Shown: positions 7,052 to 61,048 of the stretch, piece after piece
Layout: every line of letters starts with the position of its first letter
Position numbering within the stretch: position 1 is the stretch's first letter
Origin: a plasmid
Assembly: GCF_988243305.1 (NCBI RefSeq)
Contig: NZ_OZ547138.1
Length of the DNA: 64,000 bases
Reading direction: 5' to 3' (one strand)
Program-made: the position numbers and the translations under genes
The notes under the pieces: generated by a model
Database searches by the model: none
What the model saw: the letters and a program-made list of their open reading frames with translations, nothing else
Told to the model about the DNA's origin: nothing

Positions 7052-7390
7052 GGATGTCGCCGCAGGCTCCGCTTTACCCGGCCATGCGGGGCATGGCCTT
7101 GTGGGTTTTCAGTTATGTGGCCTCAGCGTCGTGTGCGGGCTGTGCCGTGCCTCCATCGTAGCCGGGCTTCTGCGGGCGGGTTGCAAGGTAAGGTGAACCG
7201 CTGCGGTCACCCGGTCCCTCCTTCCCGTCTGCCGTGATTTTCCGGTCGTTCACCCGCTCAGATTTCGCGGTCTCACCCTCCAACTCCCGTCAGCCGTGCG
7301 CGTCAGGCTGCGGCTTCCCTTGCGCCCTTGCAACCCTGCAGGTCCGGCAAAGATGGAGGCACGGCACCGCCCGGTGTCGCGGAATATGTG
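7052..7390. repeat. Structured GC-rich repeat, family A copy 1 (ssi/Frpo-like candidate single-strand promoter) upstream of klcA
   Basis: About 340 bp near-identical to 14001-14340; both end just upstream of an antirestriction gene start. Confidence 0.6.
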
Positions 7391-8693: not shown

Positions 8694-9200
8694 ACTTCGG
8701 CTCCCGGCTGCCTGGCGGCATCCGGTCGTCAGGCCCGACTCCGACGGGCAGCTGCTGGCGCACCCGCCAGTCTCCGCCGAACCCGCTGGCGCGGTTTCGG
8801 GCTGCCGCTACGGTCCGATGCGTGAAAACCCGGCTTGCAGCGACCGTTCCGGTCGCGCCGCCCCTGTCGCGCCGTGACCTGCGCTCCCTGCACACCTGAC
8901 GGTGTGTGAGGAAACTGCGCCTGATGGCGCAGCAGTCCTCCCTCCTGCCGCCACTCCTGCGGCCTGTTTCCCGCTGTGGACTTTCCGGGGGGCAGACGTA
9001 ACCCCCTCCCGTTCCATCTGTCCAGGGTGAGATGCACCGGCCACAAAATTTTTAGCCATGAACCCGGCAAAAAATTTTGCGTCCGCCCCCGGACAGCTGC
9101 CCCGTGAGGCGGTAAACGGGCCCCCATCGGAAAGGTCCACTGCGGGGAGAAAACCCTGTGAAGTGGACGGCAGGAGGAGCTTTCGCTCCTCTGAAGGGGC
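8694..9200. repeat. Structured GC-rich repeat, family B copy 1 (ssi/Frpo-like) upstream of ssb
   Basis: About 500 bp homologous to 15041-15545 and, in part, 18071-18395. Confidence 0.6.
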
Positions 9201-9260
9201 ACATGAACGTCCCGTCGCCGGTATCCGGTTTATCTCACATCTTTCAGTCAGGAGGTTCTT

Positions 9261-10136: not shown

Positions 10137-12095
10137 ATGCCTGTAACGAAGTGTGAACCAGAAACCACCCGCAAAGCAAGCCGTAAATCTGTAAAAACGC
10201 AGGAAACTGTCCTGTCTGCCCTGCTGGCGCAGACGGAGGAAGTGAGCGTGCCGCTGGCCTCGCTGATTAAATCACCGCTGAATGTGCGCACGGTGCCGTA
10301 TTCTGCGGAGTCCGTCAGCGAACTGGCGGAGTCCATTAAGGGCGTTGGCCTGTTGCAGAATCTGGTCGTGCATACCCTGCCTGGTGACCGTTACGGTGTC
10401 GCCGCAGGTGGTCGCCGACTGGCTGCACTCAACATGCTGGCAGAGCGTGGCATTATTCCGGCTGACTGGCCTGTACGCGTGAAGGTTATTCCGCAGGAGC
10501 TGGCGACTGCCGCATCAATGACTGAAAACGGTCATCGTCGGGATATGCACCCTGCCGAACAGATTGCCGGATTCCGTGCGATGGCGCAGGAAGGCAAAAC
10601 GCCTGCACAAATCGGTGATTTGCTGGGCTATTCGCCCCGCCACGTTCAGCGAATGCTGAAACTGGCAGACCTTGCGCCTGTCATCCTCGATGCGCTGGCA
10701 GAAGACCGCATCACCACAGAGCACTGTCAGGCGCTGGCGCTGGAGAACGACACCGCGCGTCAGGTGCAGGTGTTTGAAGCCGCCTGCCAGTCGGGATGGG
10801 GCGGTAAACCGGAAGTACAGACCATTCGTCGTCTGGTGACCGAAAGTGAAGTGGCGGTGGCGGGGAACAGTAAATTCCGCTTTGTGGGGGCTGATGCCTT
10901 CTCGCCAGATGAACTGCGCACTGATTTGTTCAGCGACGACGAGGGTGGCTATGTGGACTGTGTTGCGCTCGATGCCGCCCTGCTGGAAAAACTCCAGGCT
11001 GTTGCAGAGTTCCTTCGGGAAGCCGAAGGCTGGGGATGGTGCGCCGGACGCATGGAGCCTGTCGGTGAGTGCCGTGAGGATGCCGGAACATACCGCTGTC
11101 TGCCGGAGCCGGAAGCGGTGCTGACGGAGGCGGAAGAAGAACGCCTGAACGAACTGATGACGCGTTACGACGCGCTGGAAAACCAGTGTGAGGAATCCGA
11201 CCTGCTGGAAGCAGAAATGAAGCTGATTGACTGCATGGCGAAGGTCAGGGCGTGGACGCCGGAGATGCGTGCCGGAAGTGGCGTGGTGGTGTCCTGGCGT
11301 TATGGAAACGTATGTGTCCAGCGTGGTGTGCAGTTGCGCAGTGAAGATGACGCGACTGATGACGCTGACCGCACGGAACAGGTGCAGGAGAAAGCGTCAG
11401 TGGAGGAAATCAGTCTGCCGTTGCTGACGAAAATGTCTTCCGAACGCACGCTGGCAGTCCAGGCAGCACTGATGCAGCAACCGGACAAATCCCTGACACT
11501 GCTGGCATGGACGCTCTGCCTGAATGTGTTTGACAGCGGAGCGTACAGTAAACCAGCACAAATCAGCCTGGAATGTAAACATTATTCGCTGACCAGCGAT
11601 GCGCCGTCAGGGAAGGAAGGTGCCGCATTCCTGGCGCTGATGGCAGAAAAAGCCCGTCTTGCGGCCCTGTTACCGGAGGGATGGTCACGGGACATGACGA
11701 CGTTCCTGTCACTCAGTCAGGAGGTGCTGTTATCCCTGCTCAGTTTCTGCACCGCATGCAGCCTTAACGGTGTCCAGACCCGCGAGTGTGGTCGCACGTC
11801 ACGCAGTCCGCTTGACTCACTGGAGAGCGCCATCGGTTTTCACATGCGCGACTGGTGGCAGCCGACGAAAGCAAACTTCTTCGGACACCTGAAAAAGCCG
11901 CAGATTATCGCAGCCCTGAATGATGCCGGACTGTCCGGTGCCGCACGGGACGCAGAGAAGATGAAGAAAGGCGATGCCGCTGAACATGCAGAGTTCCATA
12001 TGAAAGACAACCGCTGGGTGCCTGGCTGGATGTGTTCACCACGTCCACAGACGGATGCCACTGAACGCGCCGATAACCTGGCTGATGCCGCCTGA
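10137..12095 (+). CDS. ParB-like nuclease domain protein of the leading region
   Basis: N-terminal ParB/Srx-like region (LQNLVVHTLPGDRYGVAAGGRRLAAL); about 650 aa; start ATG 10137 preferred (AAGGGG RBS). Confidence 0.7.
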   Translation: MPVTKCEPETTRKASRKSVKTQETVLSALLAQTEEVSVPLASLIKSPLNVRTVPYSAESVSELAESIKGVGLLQNLVVHTLPGDRYGVAAGGRRLAALNMLAERGIIPADWPVRVKVIPQELATAASMTENGHRRDMHPAEQIAGFRAMAQEGKTPAQIGDLLGYSPRHVQRMLKLADLAPVILDALAEDRITTEHCQALALENDTARQVQVFEAACQSGWGGKPEVQTIRRLVTESEVAVAGNSKFRFVGADAFSPDELRTDLFSDDEGGYVDCVALDAALLEKLQAVAEFLREAEGWGWCAGRMEPVGECREDAGTYRCLPEPEAVLTEAEEERLNELMTRYDALENQCEESDLLEAEMKLIDCMAKVRAWTPEMRAGSGVVVSWRYGNVCVQRGVQLRSEDDATDDADRTEQVQEKASVEEISLPLLTKMSSERTLAVQAALMQQPDKSLTLLAWTLCLNVFDSGAYSKPAQISLECKHYSLTSDAPSGKEGAAFLALMAEKARLAALLPEGWSRDMTTFLSLSQEVLLSLLSFCTACSLNGVQTRECGRTSRSPLDSLESAIGFHMRDWWQPTKANFFGHLKKPQIIAALNDAGLSGAARDAEKMKKGDAAEHAEFHMKDNRWVPGWMCSPRPQTDATERADNLADAA

Positions 12096-12146
12096 TGAAC
12101 AACCACACCGCCCCGCCGGAGACGGGGCGGCAGAGGGAGAAATACG

Positions 12147-12584
12147 ATGATGAATACCGAACTGACACTGAATGCCCTGCAGTCCATGAATGCCCAGGAA
12201 TATGAAGAAATCCGTGCTGCGGGAAGCGATATGCGCCGTAATCTCACTCACGAGGTGATGCGTGAAGTGGACGCACCGGCTAACTGGATGATGAACGGAG
12301 AGTATGGCAGCGAGTTCGGGGGCTTTTTCCCCGTCCAGGTTCGTTTCACGCCAGCCCACGAACGTTTCCACCTGGCATTATGTTCGCCGGGAGACGTCTC
12401 TCAGCTCTGGATGCTGGTTCTGGTGAATGGTGGTGGACAGCCTTTCGCCGTCGTTCAGGTGCAACATATCTTCACGCCTGTCGCGATCAGTCACACGCTG
12501 GCGCTTGCCGCGACACTGGATGCGCAGGGATACAGTGTTAACGACATCATCCATATCCTGATGGCAGAAGGAGGTCAGGCATGA
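12147..12584 (+). CDS. psiB: Plasmid SOS inhibition protein B
   Basis: 145 aa; [23 protein letters not shown]...HILMAEGGQ matches the PsiB family. Confidence 0.9.
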
Positions 12585-13300
12585 GCGCACGTTCACGGGC
12601 ACTGATCCCCCTCAGCGCAGAACAACAGGCCGCCATGCAGGCGGTGGCTGTCACAGAACAACGTCGTCGTCAGGGACGCACACTTTCAGCATGGCCTTAT
12701 GCCACCGCTTTCTTTCGCTGCCTGAATGGCAGTCGCCGGATTTCGCTGACCGATCTCCGCTTTTTTGCCCCTGCGCTGACGAAGGAGGAATTTCATGGCA
12801 ACCGTCTCCTGTGGCTGGCTGCCGTGGATAAACTGATTGAAAGTTTTGGGGAAGTCTGTGTTCTTCCCCTGCCATCCGATGCGGGGCACCGTCTGTTCCC
12901 GTCCGTGCCTTTTCGTGAAGGTGAGCGTCGTCGTCAGAAAACCACGCTGACAGAGCAGAAATACAGCCGCCAGCGGGAACGTGAGGCAGAACGACGGGAA
13001 CTGGAATACCAGACATGTTTTGCTCAGGCGCAGATTGACCTTGCGTTTCATACTCCCGCCACGGTCGGAAGCTGGTTGTCCCGCTGGTCTGGTGTTGTTG
13101 AGGAGCATGATCTGGAAACGATTTTCTGGGGGTGGTGCGGGCGTTTTCCATCACTGTCATCATTTGACCGGTTTTTCTGGCAGGAGGAACCACTCTGGCG
13201 GCTGATTTTTGAAGCCGGTGAGGCCGGTCGTGGTGCACCGGTACAGGTACGTGCACTTGAGCAGTGGATGATCCCGAACAAGCTGGAGAACGTAATATGA
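12581..13300 (+). CDS. psiA: Plasmid SOS inhibition protein A
   Basis: 239 aa immediately downstream of psiB with overlapping start/stop, the conserved psiB-psiA arrangement. Confidence 0.85.
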
Positions 13301-13893
13301 TGAAATCAGACGAAAAATACCAGGTTCCCGCGTGGATGCGACCTCTGTTGCCGTTGCTCTGCAACACCGGGGGGAACGATCCGGAAGAACTGCTGAATGA
13401 TACAGAAACCACTGCCAGTGCGAATGTTGTCCGTTATGTACTGATAGTTGCTGTGCGGTCGCAGGTTGATCTGCTGCAGCTTCTGTACAGGAAAGGGCTG
13501 TTGCGCACAGAGATACCAGGTGGCTTTTCACCGGAAGAAGCGCAGGCACTCCTGGATAATCTGGTGCGCAGCCATATCAGCAAGGCGCTGTCGGGCGAGC
13601 GAATGGCAGCCCGTGACAGAAATGCCGATCTGGCCTGGATTGGACAGCAACTGGTCGATGCCGCCTGGTTTGTCCGTGCCACACTGGAAGCGCATGGGAT
13701 GAGCGTCGGAAATGAGAGTCCCCCTGCTCCGCCGGAGACAATGCCGGACATACAGACACGGGAACTGGTGATGTTGATCAAGCGACTGGCATCATCGCTG
13801 AAAGCGGTGAAACCGGACAGTTGTGTGGTGCGTGAAGCGCAGGACTGGCTGCGCGACAGAAAACTTGTGAGCATCACGGATGTTCTCCGGTGA
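13297..13893 (+). CDS. Hypothetical leading-region protein
   Basis: ATG 13297 overlaps the psiA stop; about 198 aa. Confidence 0.45.
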   Translation: MMKSDEKYQVPAWMRPLLPLLCNTGGNDPEELLNDTETTASANVVRYVLIVAVRSQVDLLQLLYRKGLLRTEIPGGFSPEEAQALLDNLVRSHISKALSGERMAARDRNADLAWIGQQLVDAAWFVRATLEAHGMSVGNESPPAPPETMPDIQTRELVMLIKRLASSLKAVKPDSCVVREAQDWLRDRKLVSITDVLR

Positions 13894-14000
13894 ACCAGTG
13901 GAGGTATGCTTGAGGGGCAGGGACATGCCAGTCATGATCGTTTCATATCAGGGGTGGTCTGGAGGTCATGCGGTGTGCTCCCTGCTCTCGCCGGAATAAG

Positions 14001-14340
14001 GAAGTCGCCGGCGGCTCCGCTTTTACCCGGCCATGCGGGGCATGGCCTTGTGGGTTTTCAGTTATGTGGCCGCCGTGTCGTGTGCGGGCTGTGCCGTGCC
14101 TCCATCGTAGCCGGGCTTCTGCGGGCGGGATGCAAGGTAAGATGAACCGCTGCGGTCACCCGGTCCCTCCTTCCCGTCTGCCGTGATTTTCCGGTCGTTC
14201 ACCCGCTCAGATTTCGCGGTCTCACCCTCCAACTCCCGTCAGCCGTGCGCGTCGGGCTGCGGCTTTCCTTGCGCCCTTGCATCCCTGCAGGCCCGGCAAA
14301 GATGGAGGCACGGCACCGCCCGGTGTCGCAGAACATGTGA
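14001..14340. repeat. Structured GC-rich repeat, family A copy 2 (ssi/Frpo-like) upstream of ardA
   Basis: Near-identical to 7052-7390. Confidence 0.6.
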
Positions 14341-14357
14341 CTATGGAGGATTCGGGA

Positions 14358-14858
14358 ATGTCTGTTGTTGCACCTGCTGTATACGTTGGAACCTGGCACA
14401 AATACAACTGTGGAAGCATCGCCGGACGCTGGTTTGACCTGACCACGTTTGATGATGAGCGCGACTTTTTCGCCGCCTGCCGTGCTCTTCACCAGGATGA
14501 AGCCGATCCTGAACTGATGTTTCAGGATTATGAGGGATTCCCGGGGAATATGGCCTCTGAATGTCATATCAACTGGGCCTGGGTTGAAGGCTTCCGCCGG
14601 GCACGGGATGAAGGCTGCGAAGAGGCTTATCGTCTCTGGGTGGATGATACCGGTGAGACGGATTTTGACAGCTTCCGCGATGCCTGGTGGGGCGAGGCTG
14701 ACAGTGAGGAGGCTTTTGCGGTTGAGTTCGCCAGTGATACCGGCCTGCTGGCTGACGTGCCGGAGACGGTGGCGCTCTATTTTGACTATGAGGCGTATGC
14801 GCGGGATTTATTCCTGGACTCCTTCACCTTTATTGACGGTCATGTGTTCCGTCGGTGA
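14358..14858 (+). CDS. ardA: ArdA antirestriction protein (DNA mimic, anti type I R-M)
   Basis: Internal start MSVVAPAVYVGTWHKYNCGSIAGRWFDL gives 166 aa, highly acidic; about 5 kb from oriT as in IncI1. Confidence 0.9.
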   Translation: MSVVAPAVYVGTWHKYNCGSIAGRWFDLTTFDDERDFFAACRALHQDEADPELMFQDYEGFPGNMASECHINWAWVEGFRRARDEGCEEAYRLWVDDTGETDFDSFRDAWWGEADSEEAFAVEFASDTGLLADVPETVALYFDYEAYARDLFLDSFTFIDGHVFRR

Positions 14859-15040
14859 TTTACTCCCCCGCTCCGGCGGGGGTATGGCCTGCCAGGCCGC
14901 CGGAAAACCCTGGCAGGCTTACGCCTGCCTGAAATGCAGGAGGGCCGCGCCTGCGGCGCTGCCCTTCCTGCCCGTCATGGTGTGAGGCATTTTTCTGTTA
15001 TGTCGTTTCTGTTGTTCTGATTTCCGGAGGCGGGGACACC

Positions 15041-15545
15041 TTCGGCTCCCGGCTGCCTGGCGGCATCCGGTCGTCAGGCCCGACTCCGACAGGCAGCTGC
15101 TGGCGCACCCGCCAGTCTCCGCCGAACCCGCTGGCGCGGTTTCGGGCTGCCGCTACGGTCCGATGTCTGAAAAACCAGGCTTGCAGCGACCGTTCCGGTC
15201 GCGCCGCCTCTGTCGCGCCGTGACCTGCGCTCCCTGCACACCTGACGGTGTGTAAGGAAACTGCGCCTGATGGCGCAGTTGTCTGCCCTTCCGCCGCCAC
15301 CCCTGCGGCCTGTTTCCCGCTGTGGACTTTCCGGGGGCTGAAGCGGCCACAACACGTGTCAGCCGTCCAGGGGGGAGATGTACCAGCCACAAAACTTTTT
15401 GCCGCAAGCGTCAAAAACTTTTGCGTCTGCCCCCGGACAACTGCCCCGTGCCGTGGCTGTCGCTGCCCCATCGGAAAGGTCCACTGCGGGGAGAAACCCC
15501 GAAGAAGTGGACGGCAGAAGGGGCTTTCGCCCCTCCGGGGGAGCA
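15041..15545. repeat. Structured GC-rich repeat, family B copy 2 (ssi/Frpo-like)
   Basis: Homologous to 8694-9200. Confidence 0.6.
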
Positions 15546-15589
15546 ACCGGTCGGCCCGGCGACCTGATTCAGCAGAAGGAGACGTTTTC

Positions 15590-16024
15590 ATGACAGTCAG
15601 CAGCACGATTTCCGTTTTTTGCCGCGACGGGGTGTTCCGTACCGTTTACTGCCACCTGCACGGTGAGCCGACCTGGAACGGTCGCATCCTGCATACCCAC
15701 TATGCCACCGGTCAGCAGGCCGAAGCCCTGGTTGAACACGGTGATATCCGTTGCCTCGGTCCCCGTTGCGACAAACCCGCCGGGCATACGCTTCAGAACC
15801 CGGTGGACGGTGTGACGGCTTATTACGGACGTGACAGTGGTTTCCGGATGGACAGTGAGGCGCGTGAGTACCGTTCTTTCAGGGAGGCCATCGCCACGGA
15901 AAGCACTGAAGAGGTGCGCTTCCATTATGTGTTCATCGACGGCTACTGGAAGGTGATGTACCGCACGCCGGAAGGCTGGAAGATGAAGTCGCTTGCGCTG
16001 GCACTGCGCCGCTGTCCGAAATGA
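15590..16024 (+). CDS. Hypothetical Cys/His-containing protein directly downstream of an ssi-like element
   Basis: ATG 15590 with AGAAGGAG RBS; 144 aa (MTVSSTISVFCRDGVF...). Confidence 0.5.
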   Translation: MTVSSTISVFCRDGVFRTVYCHLHGEPTWNGRILHTHYATGQQAEALVEHGDIRCLGPRCDKPAGHTLQNPVDGVTAYYGRDSGFRMDSEAREYRSFREAIATESTEEVRFHYVFIDGYWKVMYRTPEGWKMKSLALALRRCPK

Positions 16025-16030
16025 AAAAAA

Positions 16031-16051
16031 GGCAGGGCGATAAACCCTGCC
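16031..16051. terminator. Hairpin GGCAGGG-cgataaa-CCCTGCC flanked by an A-run; candidate (bidirectional) terminator
   Basis: Inverted repeat immediately after the stop of the 15590-16024 ORF. Confidence 0.3.
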
Positions 16052-16117
16052 TCTCTCCGCCGGCGCTTCCCCGCCAGGAAGCCCGGCATCTCAATCACTA
16101 TCTATGGAGATTATGCC

Positions 16118-16384
16118 ATGAGACCATCAATTATCTTCGCAACCGCCGAGTATGTAAAGCGTCTGCGTGAAGAGTGCCTGCGGGAGAATAAACCCCTGCA
16201 CCGCCATACCCGCTTCAGACGTCAGGAGCTGGCACAGGATGAGATTAACCCGGACGTCCTGGCGATGAGCGGTCATATCGCCAGACGCTGCAGTGAGCAG
16301 AAGCGGGTGCGTATCCCCGCTATGAAAGCCAGCGAATGGGGCCACCTGCTCCGCGCGCTTGAAATTGAACGGGTCTGCCACTGA
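16118..16384 (+). CDS. Small hypothetical protein
   Basis: 88 aa; GGAG RBS. Confidence 0.35.
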   Translation: MRPSIIFATAEYVKRLREECLRENKPLHRHTRFRRQELAQDEINPDVLAMSGHIARRCSEQKRVRIPAMKASEWGHLLRALEIERVCH

Positions 16385-16448
16385 TTAACCCTTGCCGTCT
16401 GCCTGTGCAGGCGGCAGGATACGTTCAGACATCTCACCAGGAGGAACC

Positions 16449-17351
16449 GTGAGTAAGAAGAAAAACACCACAACGCCCACGCCGCATGATGCCGCGTTCC
16501 GGTCGTTCCTGGCGAATCCCGACGTCGCCAGAGATTTTCTGGAACTGCATCTTCCGGCGGAGTACCGGCAGTTGTGCGACCTGTCCACGCTGAAGCTGGA
16601 ACCCGCCACCTTTGTAGAGCCGGACCTGCATCAGTACGCCAGCGATATCCTCTGGAGCGTGAAAACCACCGGGGGTGAAGACGGCTATGTTTATACGCTC
16701 ATCGAGCACCAGAGCACCGAAAATCTGTACATGCCTTTTCGCATGTTACGTTACAGTGTGGCGGCGATGCAGAGACATCTGGAGCAGCACAAAACGTTGC
16801 CACTGGTGATTCCGGTGCTGTTCTATCACGGTGAGCGCAGCCCGTACCCGTACAGCATGAACTGGCTGGACTGTTTTGAGAATCCGGCACTTGCGGCTAA
16901 AATATACACAAAGCCGTTTCCGCTGGTTGATATCACTGTCGTTGATGACAATGAAATCATGAATCATCGCCGGATGGCCGCACTGACGCTGCTGATGAAG
17001 CATATCCGCCATCGTGACATGATGGAGCTGCTGGACAAACTCCCGAAGGTCATGGTGGAAATTTCAGACGAGCAGGTGCGTGTTCTGATTCATTACATCG
17101 TTAACGCAGGGGACTCTGTATCACCGGAATTTATGCGGGCGCTGGCTGAGCGTCTGCCGCAGCATGAGGATAAACTGATGACTATCGCAGAACGTCTTGA
17201 GCAAAAAGGTCGCCAGGAGGGCAGGATGGAAGGTGCGCTTGAAAAAGCCCTGGCTATTGCGTGCCAGCTTCAGAAAATGGGGATGACGCCGGAGCAGATT
17301 AAGCAGGCTACCGGGCTTTCCGATGACGAACTGAAGAAAATCACTCACTGA
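16449..17351 (+). CDS. Rpn-family (YhgA-like) recombination-promoting nuclease / putative transposase
   Basis: GTG start with AGGAGG RBS; about 300 aa with the YhgA-like core (ASDILWSV...YTLIEHQS) and the characteristic repeated C-terminal tail (ERLEQKGRQEGRMEGALEKA). Confidence 0.7.
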   Translation: MSKKKNTTTPTPHDAAFRSFLANPDVARDFLELHLPAEYRQLCDLSTLKLEPATFVEPDLHQYASDILWSVKTTGGEDGYVYTLIEHQSTENLYMPFRMLRYSVAAMQRHLEQHKTLPLVIPVLFYHGERSPYPYSMNWLDCFENPALAAKIYTKPFPLVDITVVDDNEIMNHRRMAALTLLMKHIRHRDMMELLDKLPKVMVEISDEQVRVLIHYIVNAGDSVSPEFMRALAERLPQHEDKLMTIAERLEQKGRQEGRMEGALEKALAIACQLQKMGMTPEQIKQATGLSDDELKKITH

Positions 17352-17363
17352 TGAGAGTATCAC

Positions 17364-17389
17364 AGCCCGGCAAAATGCCGGGCTTTTTA
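17364..17389 (+). terminator. Rho-independent terminator after the Rpn gene
   Basis: Hairpin AGCCCGGC-aaaat-GCCGGGCT followed by TTTTT. Confidence 0.55.
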
Positions 17390-17413
17390 TCCAGCAGGAG
17401 CAGAGCAAACAGT

Positions 17414-17584
17414 ATGACGCTTGCAGAACGTCTTATACAGAAAGGTTTTGAAAAAGGCGCTCTTGAAGTGGCGCGGGAAATAGCCTGTCGGCTTCGGGAT
17501 ATGGGCTGGCCGCCGAAACGGATTCAGGAGGCTACCGGACTTTCCGGTGAAGAACTGAAAAAACTGTTTCCTGATGAGCAGTAG
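17414..17584 (+). CDS. Small protein homologous to the Rpn C-terminal domain (free-standing RpnS-like candidate)
   Basis: 56 aa from ATG 17414 (CAGGAG RBS); MTLAERLIQKG..GALEVAREIACRLRDMGWPPKRIQEATGLSGEELKKL aligns with the Rpn tail TIAERLEQKG..GALEKALAIACQLQKMGMTPEQIKQATGLSDDELKKI. Confidence 0.45.
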   Translation: MTLAERLIQKGFEKGALEVAREIACRLRDMGWPPKRIQEATGLSGEELKKLFPDEQ

Positions 17585-17614
17585 CCTGGCATTCAGCCAG
17601 GCTGTGAATCACGC

Positions 17615-17866
17615 TCACACATCCTCTGCCGTTTCCCCCAGTTCATTTTCCAGACGCCTGATGATATCTGCCTTACGCATCCCCTGCATGTGAGGCAGCA
17701 GGTCACGGACTGAAAGAGCCTGGGTGGTCCTCCAGACGGTGACGTCCACCTGTTCCGCATTTTCCCAGGCGTGCCATGTTCTCTGCGTCACGCCAAATTC
17801 TCTGGCCGCTTTTTCGCGTGACCAGAGCATGCTTTTTCGCCAGATTCGCAGTTCCCAGTCGGTCAT
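17615..17866 (-). CDS. Small HTH (XRE-like) DNA-binding protein
   Basis: 83 aa; segment LWSREKAAREFGVTQRTWHAWE resembles an HTH; palindromic operators in its upstream region. Confidence 0.5.
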   Translation of the reverse strand: MTDWELRIWRKSMLWSREKAAREFGVTQRTWHAWENAEQVDVTVWRTTQALSVRDLLPHMQGMRKADIIRRLENELGETAEDV

Positions 17867-17880
17867 AAAATACCTTTGAA

Positions 17881-17968
17881 AAAGTGAAAAAACTTCACTT
17901 TATTTTATCACCATAATCACCAAATCAGCGCGAAAAATAAGTGTGAAAAAGTGAAGAAATTTCACTTT
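17881..17968. promoter_or_regulatory. Two palindromic operator-like sites AAAGTGAA-N5-TTCACTTT (17881-17901 and 17948-17968)
   Basis: Two near-identical 21-bp palindromes 67 bp apart in an AT-rich intergenic region upstream of the HTH gene. Confidence 0.4.
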
Positions 17969-18070
17969 TTTTAATTGCAGATGTCGTGCTGTTTTCTCTG
18001 TTTTCACCTGTGCGGGAGTGGTGTGCCAGTGACCACCACATGCCATTGTTGTGCCGTCGTTTTTCTTCAG

Positions 18071-18395
18071 TCGCGCCGGATGCGGCGCTCCCTGCACACC
18101 TGACGGTGTGTAAGGCCACTGCGCCTGATGGCGCAGCTGTCTCTGCCTGTCTGCCGCCGCACTGCGGCCTGTTCTCCGCAGACGGACTTTCCGGGGGAAC
18201 ATACACGACCACATCCCGTTTCAGTTATCCAGGGGAGAGATGTACCAGCCACAAAACTTTTTGCCGCAGGCGTCAAAAACTTTTGCGTCTGCCCCCGGAC
18301 AACTGCCCCGTGACGTGGTGAGCATCCCCCGTCGGAAAGGTCCACTGCGGGGAAATCCCCGAAGACCCGGACGGCAGAAGGAGCTTCGCTCCTCC
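18071..18395. repeat. Structured GC-rich repeat, family B copy 3 (partial; ssi/Frpo-like)
   Basis: Homologous to the right-hand 330 bp of 8694-9200 and 15041-15545. Confidence 0.55.
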
Positions 18396-18442
18396 GGGAA
18401 ATGACCTGGCTGACCCGGCAGTCGTGACGATGAGGAGACAAT

Positions 18443-34001: not shown

Positions 34002-34475
34002 TTAGCCTTTTTTCCAAATCTGGTATGTATAATTTATATTAGACATAAAAAACTGTTCAAAAACCAAATTGAAATTCTCAGGCATTATAGGGAATTTGAT
34101 ATCACCTTCGACTTCAACGTGAACAGTAGACAAATGAATTATATCTGCTTTTTCAATAAGGCTATTATAGATTTGACCCCCGCCAGAGACATATACATGA
34201 TCTGTAACTTTTGATAGCTCTTTCAAAGCATTTTCTATTGAAGGAAAAACTAGGACGTTTTCATTTGAGCTTGAAATTCCGTTCTTTGACACTACTGCAT
34301 ATTTGCGATTTGGAAGAACACCCATAGAGTCAAATGTTTTTCTTCCGACAAGGAGCCATTGATTATATGTGAGCGCTTTAAAGAGTAGTTGCTCACCTTT
34401 TACTGACCACGGGATATCAGGACCACTACCGATTACGCCATTTTCTGACACTGCAGAAATCAATGATATTTTCAA
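34002..34475 (-). CDS. dfrA17: Trimethoprim-resistant dihydrofolate reductase, dfrA17-type
   Basis: 157 aa from [23 protein letters not shown]; first cassette next to attI1. Confidence 0.85.
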
Positions 34476-34632
34476 TTTAACTCCCTTAATGGCTAACTTT
34501 GTTTTAGGGCGACTGCCCTGCTGCGTAACATCGTTGCTGCTCCATAACATCAAACATCGACCCACGGCGTAACGCGCTTGCTGCTTGGATGCCCGAGGCA
34601 TAGACTGTACAAAAAAACAGTCATAACAAGCC
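34476..34632 (-). other. attI1: attI1 integration site region of the class 1 integron
   Basis: Region between the intI1 start and the first cassette. Confidence 0.6.
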
Positions 34633-57163: not shown

Positions 57164-57262
57164 CGCAAAAAAACCGACTGGTGAGGCCGGTTTTTTTGCG
57201 ATTCCGGATCGAAGTTGGTAGCCCTGACCGGAAGATAACTGCCTATAACTGACTATGAAATA
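57164..57262 (-). ncRNA. Candidate antisense antitoxin small RNA 2 (predicted, type I TA unit 2)
   Basis: Minus-strand promoter-like TTGCAG-17-TATTAT near 57285-57315, segment 57221-57252 matching the toxin-2 5' UTR motif (57410-57441), hairpin plus T-run 57166-57197. Confidence 0.35.
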
Positions 57263-60566: not shown

Positions 60567-60747
60567 GATGTGTCCTTGTTTTTTATTATTTTGCATTTCA
60601 GAAAATAACACGATGCCTGCAGCCCGGAAAACAGATGTGTGCACACGTAGTCACTTTCCGGCTTTATTTCTGTCCCTGACACAAAATACGTGGTGGCATG
60701 AAAAGGATTGTGGCGGACAGGAAAACGATTAGAATAGCGGCGGGCGC

Positions 60748-61041
60748 TTGAGGCTGTATGCCGAAAGCGTTTTGTGGACGGCATGTAGCAGAAAGCCCCA
60801 GGCGATTTTTTTATCAATCAACCCAGGGCCCACTGTAATGCCTAGACAACATTATAGTAGCCCGATGACGGCCGAAAGGCAATGGAGGGGCTGCGATGCC
60901 ACAACGAACGTTTTTAATGATGTTAATCGTCGTCTGTGTGACGATACTGTGTTTTGTCTGGATGGTGAGGGATTCGCTTTGCGGATTTCGTATCGAGCAG
61001 GGAAATACGGTGTTTGTGGCAACGTTAGCCTACGAAGTTAA
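60748..61041 (+). CDS. pndC: Candidate PndC (mok-like frame overlapping pndA; true start uncertain)
   Basis: ORF overlapping pndA in another frame, as in hok/mok-type loci. Confidence 0.35.
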   Translation: MRLYAESVLWTACSRKPQAIFLSINPGPTVMPRQHYSSPMTAERQWRGCDATTNVFNDVNRRLCDDTVFCLDGEGFALRISYRAGKYGVCGNVSLRS

Positions 61042-61048
61042 ACGTTAA
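60896..61048 (+). CDS. pndA: Hok-family type I toxin PndA
   Basis: 50 aa MPQRTFLMMLIVVCVTILCFVWMVRDSLCGFRIEQGNTVFVATLAYEVKR, GGAGG RBS. Confidence 0.85.
   Translation: MPQRTFLMMLIVVCVTILCFVWMVRDSLCGFRIEQGNTVFVATLAYEVKR

Follow-up and report, generated by a model that had tools for sequence, protein, structure and literature searches.

YgcA of an IncI-complex plasmid, a conserved leading-region protein and candidate establishment or counter-defence factor

ESBL and other resistance genes have IncI-complex plasmids among their major carriers, and the leading region of one of them, pESBL, contains a close counterpart of the gene considered here. An RNA-seq study reported in 2025 that six leading-region operons of pESBL are induced up to ~500-fold 15 min after transfer, and that every one of the six lies behind a hairpin promoter, with the start sites mapped by 5′ RACE (PMC12672017). 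Among these promoters, ssi1–3 make up class 1, i.e., the strongest class, which is homologous to the Frpo elements of plasmid F, while the klcA and ardA hairpins were assigned to class 2 and the M.EcoGIX hairpin to class 3 (PMC12672017).

The genes of this region have also been surveyed by TnSeq in pESBL. The gene for the hypothetical protein Hp16 obtained scores of 0.76 for non-essential, 0.24 for maintenance and 0.00 for transfer, and transposon insertions in it did not reduce transfer and did not clearly reduce maintenance in laboratory strains (PMC4288162). The genes ardA, psiB, klcA and ssb scored like Hp16 in the same study (PMC4288162), showing that such TnSeq matings cannot detect establishment or anti-defence roles. 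Leading-region proteins can also act outside defence, an example being the ParB-like protein YfjB with its part in host reprogramming (PMC13370423).

The present analysis concerns a counterpart of Hp16 encoded at 15.6 kb in a 64,000-nucleotide stretch of plasmid DNA (the window, to which all positions refer unless stated otherwise). In R64-style nomenclature, this gene is ygcA, and its product is 99% identical to Hp16 of pESBL (pESBL-EA11).

The ygcA gene and its leading-region setting

An earlier, sequence-only reading of the window had singled out an open reading frame of 144 codons as a candidate anti-defence gene, and this frame exists exactly as it was given, from an ATG to a TGA with AAGGAG 8 nt to the 5′ side (Table 1). 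The GC-rich stretch around ygcA is crowded with overlapping spurious ORFs, so that the length of the frame is by itself no proof of a gene. A search of 1.84 billion representative proteins returned 1983 relatives of YgcA at E ≤ 1e-3, counted as clusters at 50% identity, and in the alignment of relatives the Met start of the family lines up with the ATG of ygcA. The dN/dS of ygcA is 0.047 against plasmid pN11 and ~0.2 against diverged alleles, i.e., the gene is under strong purifying selection (omega 0.05–0.2). At least 1000 contigs encode exactly this protein, and the gene is found in 2016 PLSDB plasmids, 1974 of which have a copy at least 95% identical. The family matches with their aligned Met, the low dN/dS and the wide occurrence thus identify ygcA as a real gene, i.e., a genuine, well-conserved leading-region gene of an IncI-complex conjugative plasmid. 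A 258-codon GTG frame, which is the basis of a 251-aa UniProt entry, merely runs through the upstream repeat element.

Table 1. Positions of ygcA and of the other features discussed, in window coordinates
Feature	Position	Strand	Remarks
ssi/Frpo-type element copy 1, putative class 1	8695..9217	-	upstream of ssb; repeat finding
ssi/Frpo-type element copy 2, putative class 1	15040..15561	-	upstream of ygcA; direct-repeat families D2-D6
Ribosome-binding site AAGGAG	15576..15581	+	8-nt spacer to ygcA ATG; direct sequence reading
ygcA CDS	15590..16024	+	ATG start; TGA stop 16022-16024; 144 codons/aa; pI 8.3
Hairpin, 8 bp, GC-rich	16030..16052		6 nt past ygcA stop; A7 before
ygdA, 88 aa	16118..16384	+	downstream of ygcA, 94-nt gap, same strand
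ygdB, Rpn-family (Transposase_31 / PD-(D/E)XK) nuclease gene	16392..17351	+	annotation and Pfam
ssi/Frpo-type element copy 3, putative class 1	18067..18398	-	upstream of ygfB (DUF4942); repeat finding
Rfam sok RNA	60742-60898		125.6 bits
Overlapping upstream frame of Hok-type toxin	60748-61041		
Hok-type toxin, 50 aa	60896-61048		

The window matches IncI-gamma/K1-type conjugative plasmids, and NZ_CP145695.1 is 100% identical to it over a 1001-base query around ygcA. On the plus strand, a klcA-type antirestriction gene, a DUF1380 gene, ssb, a DUF905 gene, a parB-like gene, psiB and psiA are followed by ygaA, ardA, ygcA, ygdA and rpn (ygdB), so that ardA is the neighbour directly upstream of ygcA. 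Beyond rpn lie an HTH gene on the minus strand, ygfB (DUF4942) and yggA on the minus strand, and then oriT, nikA and nikB. This gene order is that of the classical IncI leading region. Transfer begins at oriT and runs toward lower coordinates, so that it is the minus strand that enters the recipient and acts as template for the plus-strand leading-region genes, including ygcA. Elsewhere in the window, Rfam matches were obtained to an AAC_AAD_leader/attI site (class 1 integron region; 34462–34543, minus strand) and to an AgrB antisense RNA (57165–57252, minus strand). These matches, together with the blaCTX-M-15, mph(A), sul1 and IS26 that are annotated in the 100%-identical relative of the window, mark a resistance region.

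On the downstream side, ygdA is probably co-transcribed with ygcA, and ygdB (rpn) is presumed to belong to the same operon. The ygcA–ygdA–rpn trio keeps its synteny in pN11, in pESBL, in three further loci (L004-L006) and in an IS-flanked remnant (L093). The hairpin just past the ygcA stop folds as RNA at −19.6 kcal/mol (z = −2.3). Its minus strand has the canonical terminator form of a hairpin followed by U7, the U-tract of the plus strand is weak, and a consensus scan gave no entry for it; a 3′-end stabiliser, a partial terminator and an antisense terminator are its candidate roles. A 77-aa ORF on the plus strand (17351–17584) directly follows rpn, and its last 55 residues share 56% identity with the C-terminal domain of Rpn itself (E 7e-16). 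The Rpn C-terminal HTH domain is thus present here a second time as a protein of its own, which may be an antitoxin-like partner of Rpn. Farther on, two AT-rich 42-nt direct repeats (17867–17908 and 17934–17975; 83% identical, 67 nt apart) are located between the minus-strand HTH gene (17615–17866) and ssi copy 3, and may serve as operator or promoter repeats for the HTH regulator.

The slot of ygcA is not always occupied by the same allele. A 52%-identical protein (P0054) occupies the exact ygcA locus in a few IncI-complex plasmids (L004-L006, 8001–8432 in locus coordinates). In a comparison with one of these plasmids, the 100-nt intervals flanking the ORF show 90–100% DNA identity, and identity is mostly above 90% (lowest 84%) over 12001–18000, vs. 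43–61% over 15601–16000. The dS between the P0054 allele and ygcA is ~2.5, i.e., saturated, with omega ~0.2, vs. a dS of 0.01–0.14 in the neighbouring genes. These values rule out rapid positive selection behind the divergent allele; P0054 is instead an old variant that arrived by recombination between conserved flanks. The exchange is a cassette-like xenologous replacement confined to the ORF and bounded by the ssi element and ygdA, and it shows that a member of the family is maintained in this slot. Two deletion chimeras are also on record, in which the N-terminus of the DUF1380 protein is joined to YgcA residues 5–56 (P0050, 150 contigs) or ArdA residues 1–118 are joined to YgcA residues 99–144 (P0051, one contig). 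These truncated and fused forms show that ygcA can be lost and is not indispensable, and they point to deletions having occurred repeatedly in the leading region with its many repeats.

The element upstream of ygcA

The sequence-only reading had placed the start of ygcA 45 bp after the second copy of a repeated ssi-like element, in the same arrangement as ssb after the first copy. The plasmid has exactly three copies of this family (family B), which share 85% column identity in an alignment reaching ~35–50 nt before each start codon. These three aligned copies, as well as homology to elements of pESBL and F, bear out the position of ygcA directly behind an ssi-like element, as for ssb. The likeness to ssb therefore stands, and the distance has to be taken as approximate, being ~28 nt for ygcA vs. 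~43 nt for ssb.

Folded as single-stranded DNA, the minus strand of 15150–15590 gives a long hairpin of −134.5 kcal/mol (z = −10.2), a stability that was equalled by none of 100 shuffles. Copy 2 is 92% identical to the pESBL region upstream of Hp16, and it matches the leading region of plasmid F at two sites, with identities of 92–94% over ~70 nt and 75% over 143 nt; one of the F matches lies upstream of ssb, and one lies upstream of the gene preceding a DUF932 gene. Inspection of the copy 2 hairpin by eye gave no convincing placement of −35 and −10 boxes. The Frpo/ssi homology, the repetition before operons and the stable hairpin on the transferred strand characterise copy 2 as a putative class-1 ssDNA promoter. 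A second repeat family of the window (7073–7372 and 14022–14321; 300 nt, 97% identical) lies upstream of the klcA-type gene and of ardA, and by its position corresponds to the class 2 single-strand promoters of pESBL.

The presence of exactly three family-B copies, taken together with the data on ssi1–3 of pESBL, suggests that ygcA would be the first gene of one of three ssi-driven operons. Given that it is preceded by an ssi copy, ygcA/hp16 is probably induced in fresh transconjugants. Early expression from single-stranded DNA has been demonstrated for the near-identical pESBL element, and by analogy we infer it for the ygcA described here. In the proposed course of events, the transferred minus strand would fold into the class-1 ssi/Frpo hairpin directly upstream of ygcA, and this hairpin would serve RNA polymerase as a promoter for as long as the DNA is single-stranded. 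Synthesis of YgcA in the recipient would thereby start within minutes of entry, and would be turned off once the complementary strand has been synthesised.

The protein family, its predicted fold and its conserved residues

The sequence-only reading could not assign the protein to a family, and the profile searches agree with it: Pfam gave no match to YgcA below E 0.33, NCBIfam and PADLOC gave none, and no Pfam or NCBIfam profile related YgcA to ArdA, ArdB-KlcA, ArdC or PsiB. Pfam searches with 76 family members yielded no meaningful match either, one member having a chance-level match to Acb3 at E 0.05, and no nucleic-acid-binding domain was recognisable by Pfam in YgcA or in family members. 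Among phage protein clusters, YgcA matches phrog_1987 (E 5.3e-21, residues 1–126) and PHROG 23089 (E 5e-19), and the full-length profile match together with the shared predicted fold places it in the PHROG 1987 family. This family occurs in 55 cultured phages (GAP32-like jumbo phages, KVP40-like vibriophages and T4-like cyanophages) and on at least 568 IMG/VR viral contigs, and its AFDB relatives come from diverse bacteria and one archaeon, labelled 'Uncharacterized protein'. The phage members sit in arrays of small same-strand accessory genes, in which the neighbour analysis found no fixed partner gene, the commonest neighbour being present in at most 16 of 75 loci. In the longer members, no fused domain that hints at a function was found, and the C-terminal extensions are heterogeneous and unconserved.

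A 43% relative of YgcA (P0055/P0307) is encoded in an integrative element on Salmonella and Citrobacter chromosomes, one gene away from two ArdC-N/metalloprotease (MPTase) genes. Known anti-restriction neighbours are therefore present in two unrelated element types, i.e., ArdA in IncI plasmids and ArdC-like proteins in the integrative element. The Citrobacter/Salmonella segment (L099/L003) is a compact anti-restriction island. One of the ArdC-N/MPTase genes by P0055/P0307 is fused to CbtA-toxin-like and N6-methyltransferase domains, and at the loci L099 (10001–15763) and L003 the element encodes a canonical-type YgcA relative near an integrase. The YgcA family as a whole is a large dark family with an unmatched predicted fold, and is disseminated by phages, plasmids and integrative elements.

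The AlphaFold (AF2) model of YgcA, obtained with a 76-sequence alignment, has a pLDDT of 96.8 and a pTM of 0.91, and begins with an N-terminal beta-hairpin, continues with two helices, a long loop and a short helix, and ends in a C-terminal three-stranded sheet with flanking helices. YgcA is a basic, soluble alpha/beta protein. The model agrees with the AFDB models of the family at TM 0.8–0.95, and distant AFDB members superpose on YgcA at TM 0.8–0.86 with 23–31% sequence identity. A profile search of PDB sequences gave nothing below E 0.19, a Foldseek search against the PDB found no solved structure resembling the model (best E 0.68), and a search of AFDB50 with YgcA returned uncharacterised relatives only. 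The remote-homology search and structure prediction that the sequence-only reading had proposed as a check, with searches of these three collections, gave no housekeeping or structural homologue.

Eight polar positions, T3, H22, D24, S54, H66, R81, D82 and R83, are near-invariant (94–99.6%) among 284 distant full-length members, with all eight residues kept in 242 of the 284 and three or more positions differing in only 5. Such a set looks like an ancestral active (catalytic) or ligand-binding site of the family. YgcA keeps H22, H66, R81 and D82, and has V3, H24, R54 and S83 at the other four positions, i.e., 4/8 are changed. It also has E26 for Tyr and F85 for Glu; T3, D24, Y26, S54, R83 and E85 are 90–99% conserved in the other members. 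Y20, Y79, Y113 and W120 are common to YgcA and the family. The IncI protein is therefore an unusually derived member by descent, and possibly not by activity.

The Cys/His motifs that had been quoted as potential metal ligands are present in YgcA, with C11, C21, C55, C60 and C142 and H22, H24, H35, H37, H50, H66 and H112. Among these residues, only C21 (80%), H22 and H66 are conserved in the family, and C21 is replaced by S, V or A. Metal binding by the cysteines does not hold up, because C11, C55, C60 and C142 are not conserved in the family and a Cys-based site is thus unsupported. The histidines of 'CHLHGEP' coincide with the H-x-D motif of the family, and the His in place of D24 is still a metal ligand, so that a His/Asp-based metal site in YgcA is possible.

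Candidate functions and comparison with known systems

The genetic context, i.e., ArdA upstream, ArdC-like genes near a relative and accessory gene arrays in phages, favours a counter-defence or establishment role. The anti-defence function proposed by the sequence-only reading is thus plausible, with YgcA as a candidate for either anti-defence or establishment. The leading explanation, to which we assign a probability of roughly 0.45, is that YgcA is a transient establishment or counter-defence factor acting through a remodelled ligand- or partner-binding site. In this role, YgcA would use the remodelled ancestral site to bind or sequester a molecule of the host, be it a small ligand, a protein or a metal-dependent substrate, and it would be no part of a killing system. 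A DNA-mimic mechanism like that of ArdA (pI 4.1) is unlikely for YgcA and was rejected on charge, given its basic pI of 8.3. A wider proposal can be made, in which the YgcA family would be a new structural class of mobile-element counter-defence proteins, with an enzymatic phage form and an IncI form remodelled into a decoy or sponge that acts during the single-stranded phase of conjugation; we consider this proposal speculative and rather improbable.

Phages and plasmids are well known to encode small enzymes that destroy defence signals, and YgcA might likewise be an active small metalloenzyme that modifies or degrades a host or signalling molecule early after entry. The family pattern H-x-D ... 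H ... R-D-R is in keeping with such an enzyme, and the change of D24 to His keeps a ligand while H22, H66, R81 and D82 are retained, so that H22, H24 (for D24), H66 and D82 could form a three-His/one-carboxylate site replacing the ancestral two-His/Asp site. We regard an active enzyme as unlikely nonetheless, and place at a similarly low level a role in establishment that does not involve host immunity, e.g., help in processing the incoming DNA strand, a part in recombination with the Rpn nuclease, or host reprogramming. Such a role would suit the synteny of ygcA, ygdA and rpn, which is kept even in the IS-flanked remnant, and other ssi-driven genes are not strictly anti-defence either, namely ssb and the gene of the ParB-like YfjB (PMC13370423). 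However, the family occurs in phages and in the integrative element without ygdA or rpn and with no fixed partner gene, and YgcA has no recognisable nucleic-acid-binding domain. It is less probable still that ygcA is dispensable cargo, i.e., the decaying remnant of a phage-type gene. Half of the conserved polar set is gone from YgcA, truncated and fused variants exist, and TnSeq scores the gene as non-essential (PMC4288162), all of which speaks for cargo; however, the dN/dS of 0.05–0.2, the near-uniformity of the copies (1974/2016 plasmids at ≥95% identity), the listing of ygcA in the IncK2 core genome (PMC12987596), the intact ribosome-binding site and the location directly behind the strongest promoter class speak against decay.

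A last explanation comes from the databases, where many NCBI and UniProt entries name YgcA 'post-segregation killing protein PndC'. This label is the only point in favour of YgcA as a PndC-type modulator of post-segregational killing, to which we attach a negligible probability. The genuine hok/sok-type (pnd) locus of the window lies elsewhere, at 60742–61048, where both the toxin frame and the sok RNA are found, and neither is present at 15.6 kb. The PndC frame of pESBL measures 204 bp, overlaps pndA and lies 14 kb from Hp16 (PMC4288162), whereas no toxin gene is overlapped by ygcA, whose 144-aa product has a globular fold. The PndC identity is thus refuted, as YgcA differs in locus, size and architecture from the PndC/Mok of hok-sok-type loci, to which its likeness is one of database name alone, and the name on YgcA is an annotation error. 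The wrong label needs correction because it contaminates toxin–antitoxin counts in plasmid surveys.

The presence of ygcA in ~2000 plasmids, its position behind the strongest early promoter class, the wide occurrence of its family in phages and the confidently predicted fold make it a cheap and well-defined target for anti-defence or establishment screening. A positive result on YgcA would at one stroke give an annotation to thousands of genes in phages and plasmids. If YgcA is indeed a counter-defence decoy or sponge, its target could expose a host defence pathway against incoming conjugative DNA.

Compared with known systems, YgcA resembles its PHROG 1987 / 23089 relatives in length, predicted fold and the residues H22, H66, R81 and D82, and differs from them in that T3, D24, Y26, S54, R83 and E85 are replaced in the IncI protein. 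The anti-defence enzymes and sponges Acb1, Tad1/Tad2 and Acb2 are small soluble phage and plasmid proteins that are encoded in accessory or early regions and carry conserved His, Arg and aromatic residues. Their relation to YgcA is one of functional analogy, with no detectable homology. The HxD...H...R pattern of Fe(II)/2-oxoglutarate oxygenases recurs in the canonical family as H22-x-D24, H66 and R81, in the same order and with roughly the same spacing. However, these oxygenases have a double-stranded beta-helix, in contrast to the mixed alpha/beta model of YgcA, in which H also replaces D. An oxygenase identity was rejected, since the YgcA model contains no double-stranded beta-helix and no oxygenase is found among its structural neighbours.

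A further likeness is to the genes of the leading region itself. As in the case of ardA, ssb, psiB and klcA, ygcA lies in the leading region with the transferred strand as its template and a hairpin promoter directly upstream, and those four genes are dispensable for transfer in laboratory matings, as is Hp16 (PMC4288162). The promoter of ardA belongs to class 2, in contrast to the class-1 element ahead of ygcA, and ArdA, a very acidic DNA mimic, has no sequence or fold similarity to the basic YgcA. With this position and these shared features, YgcA joins the known class of leading-region early genes.
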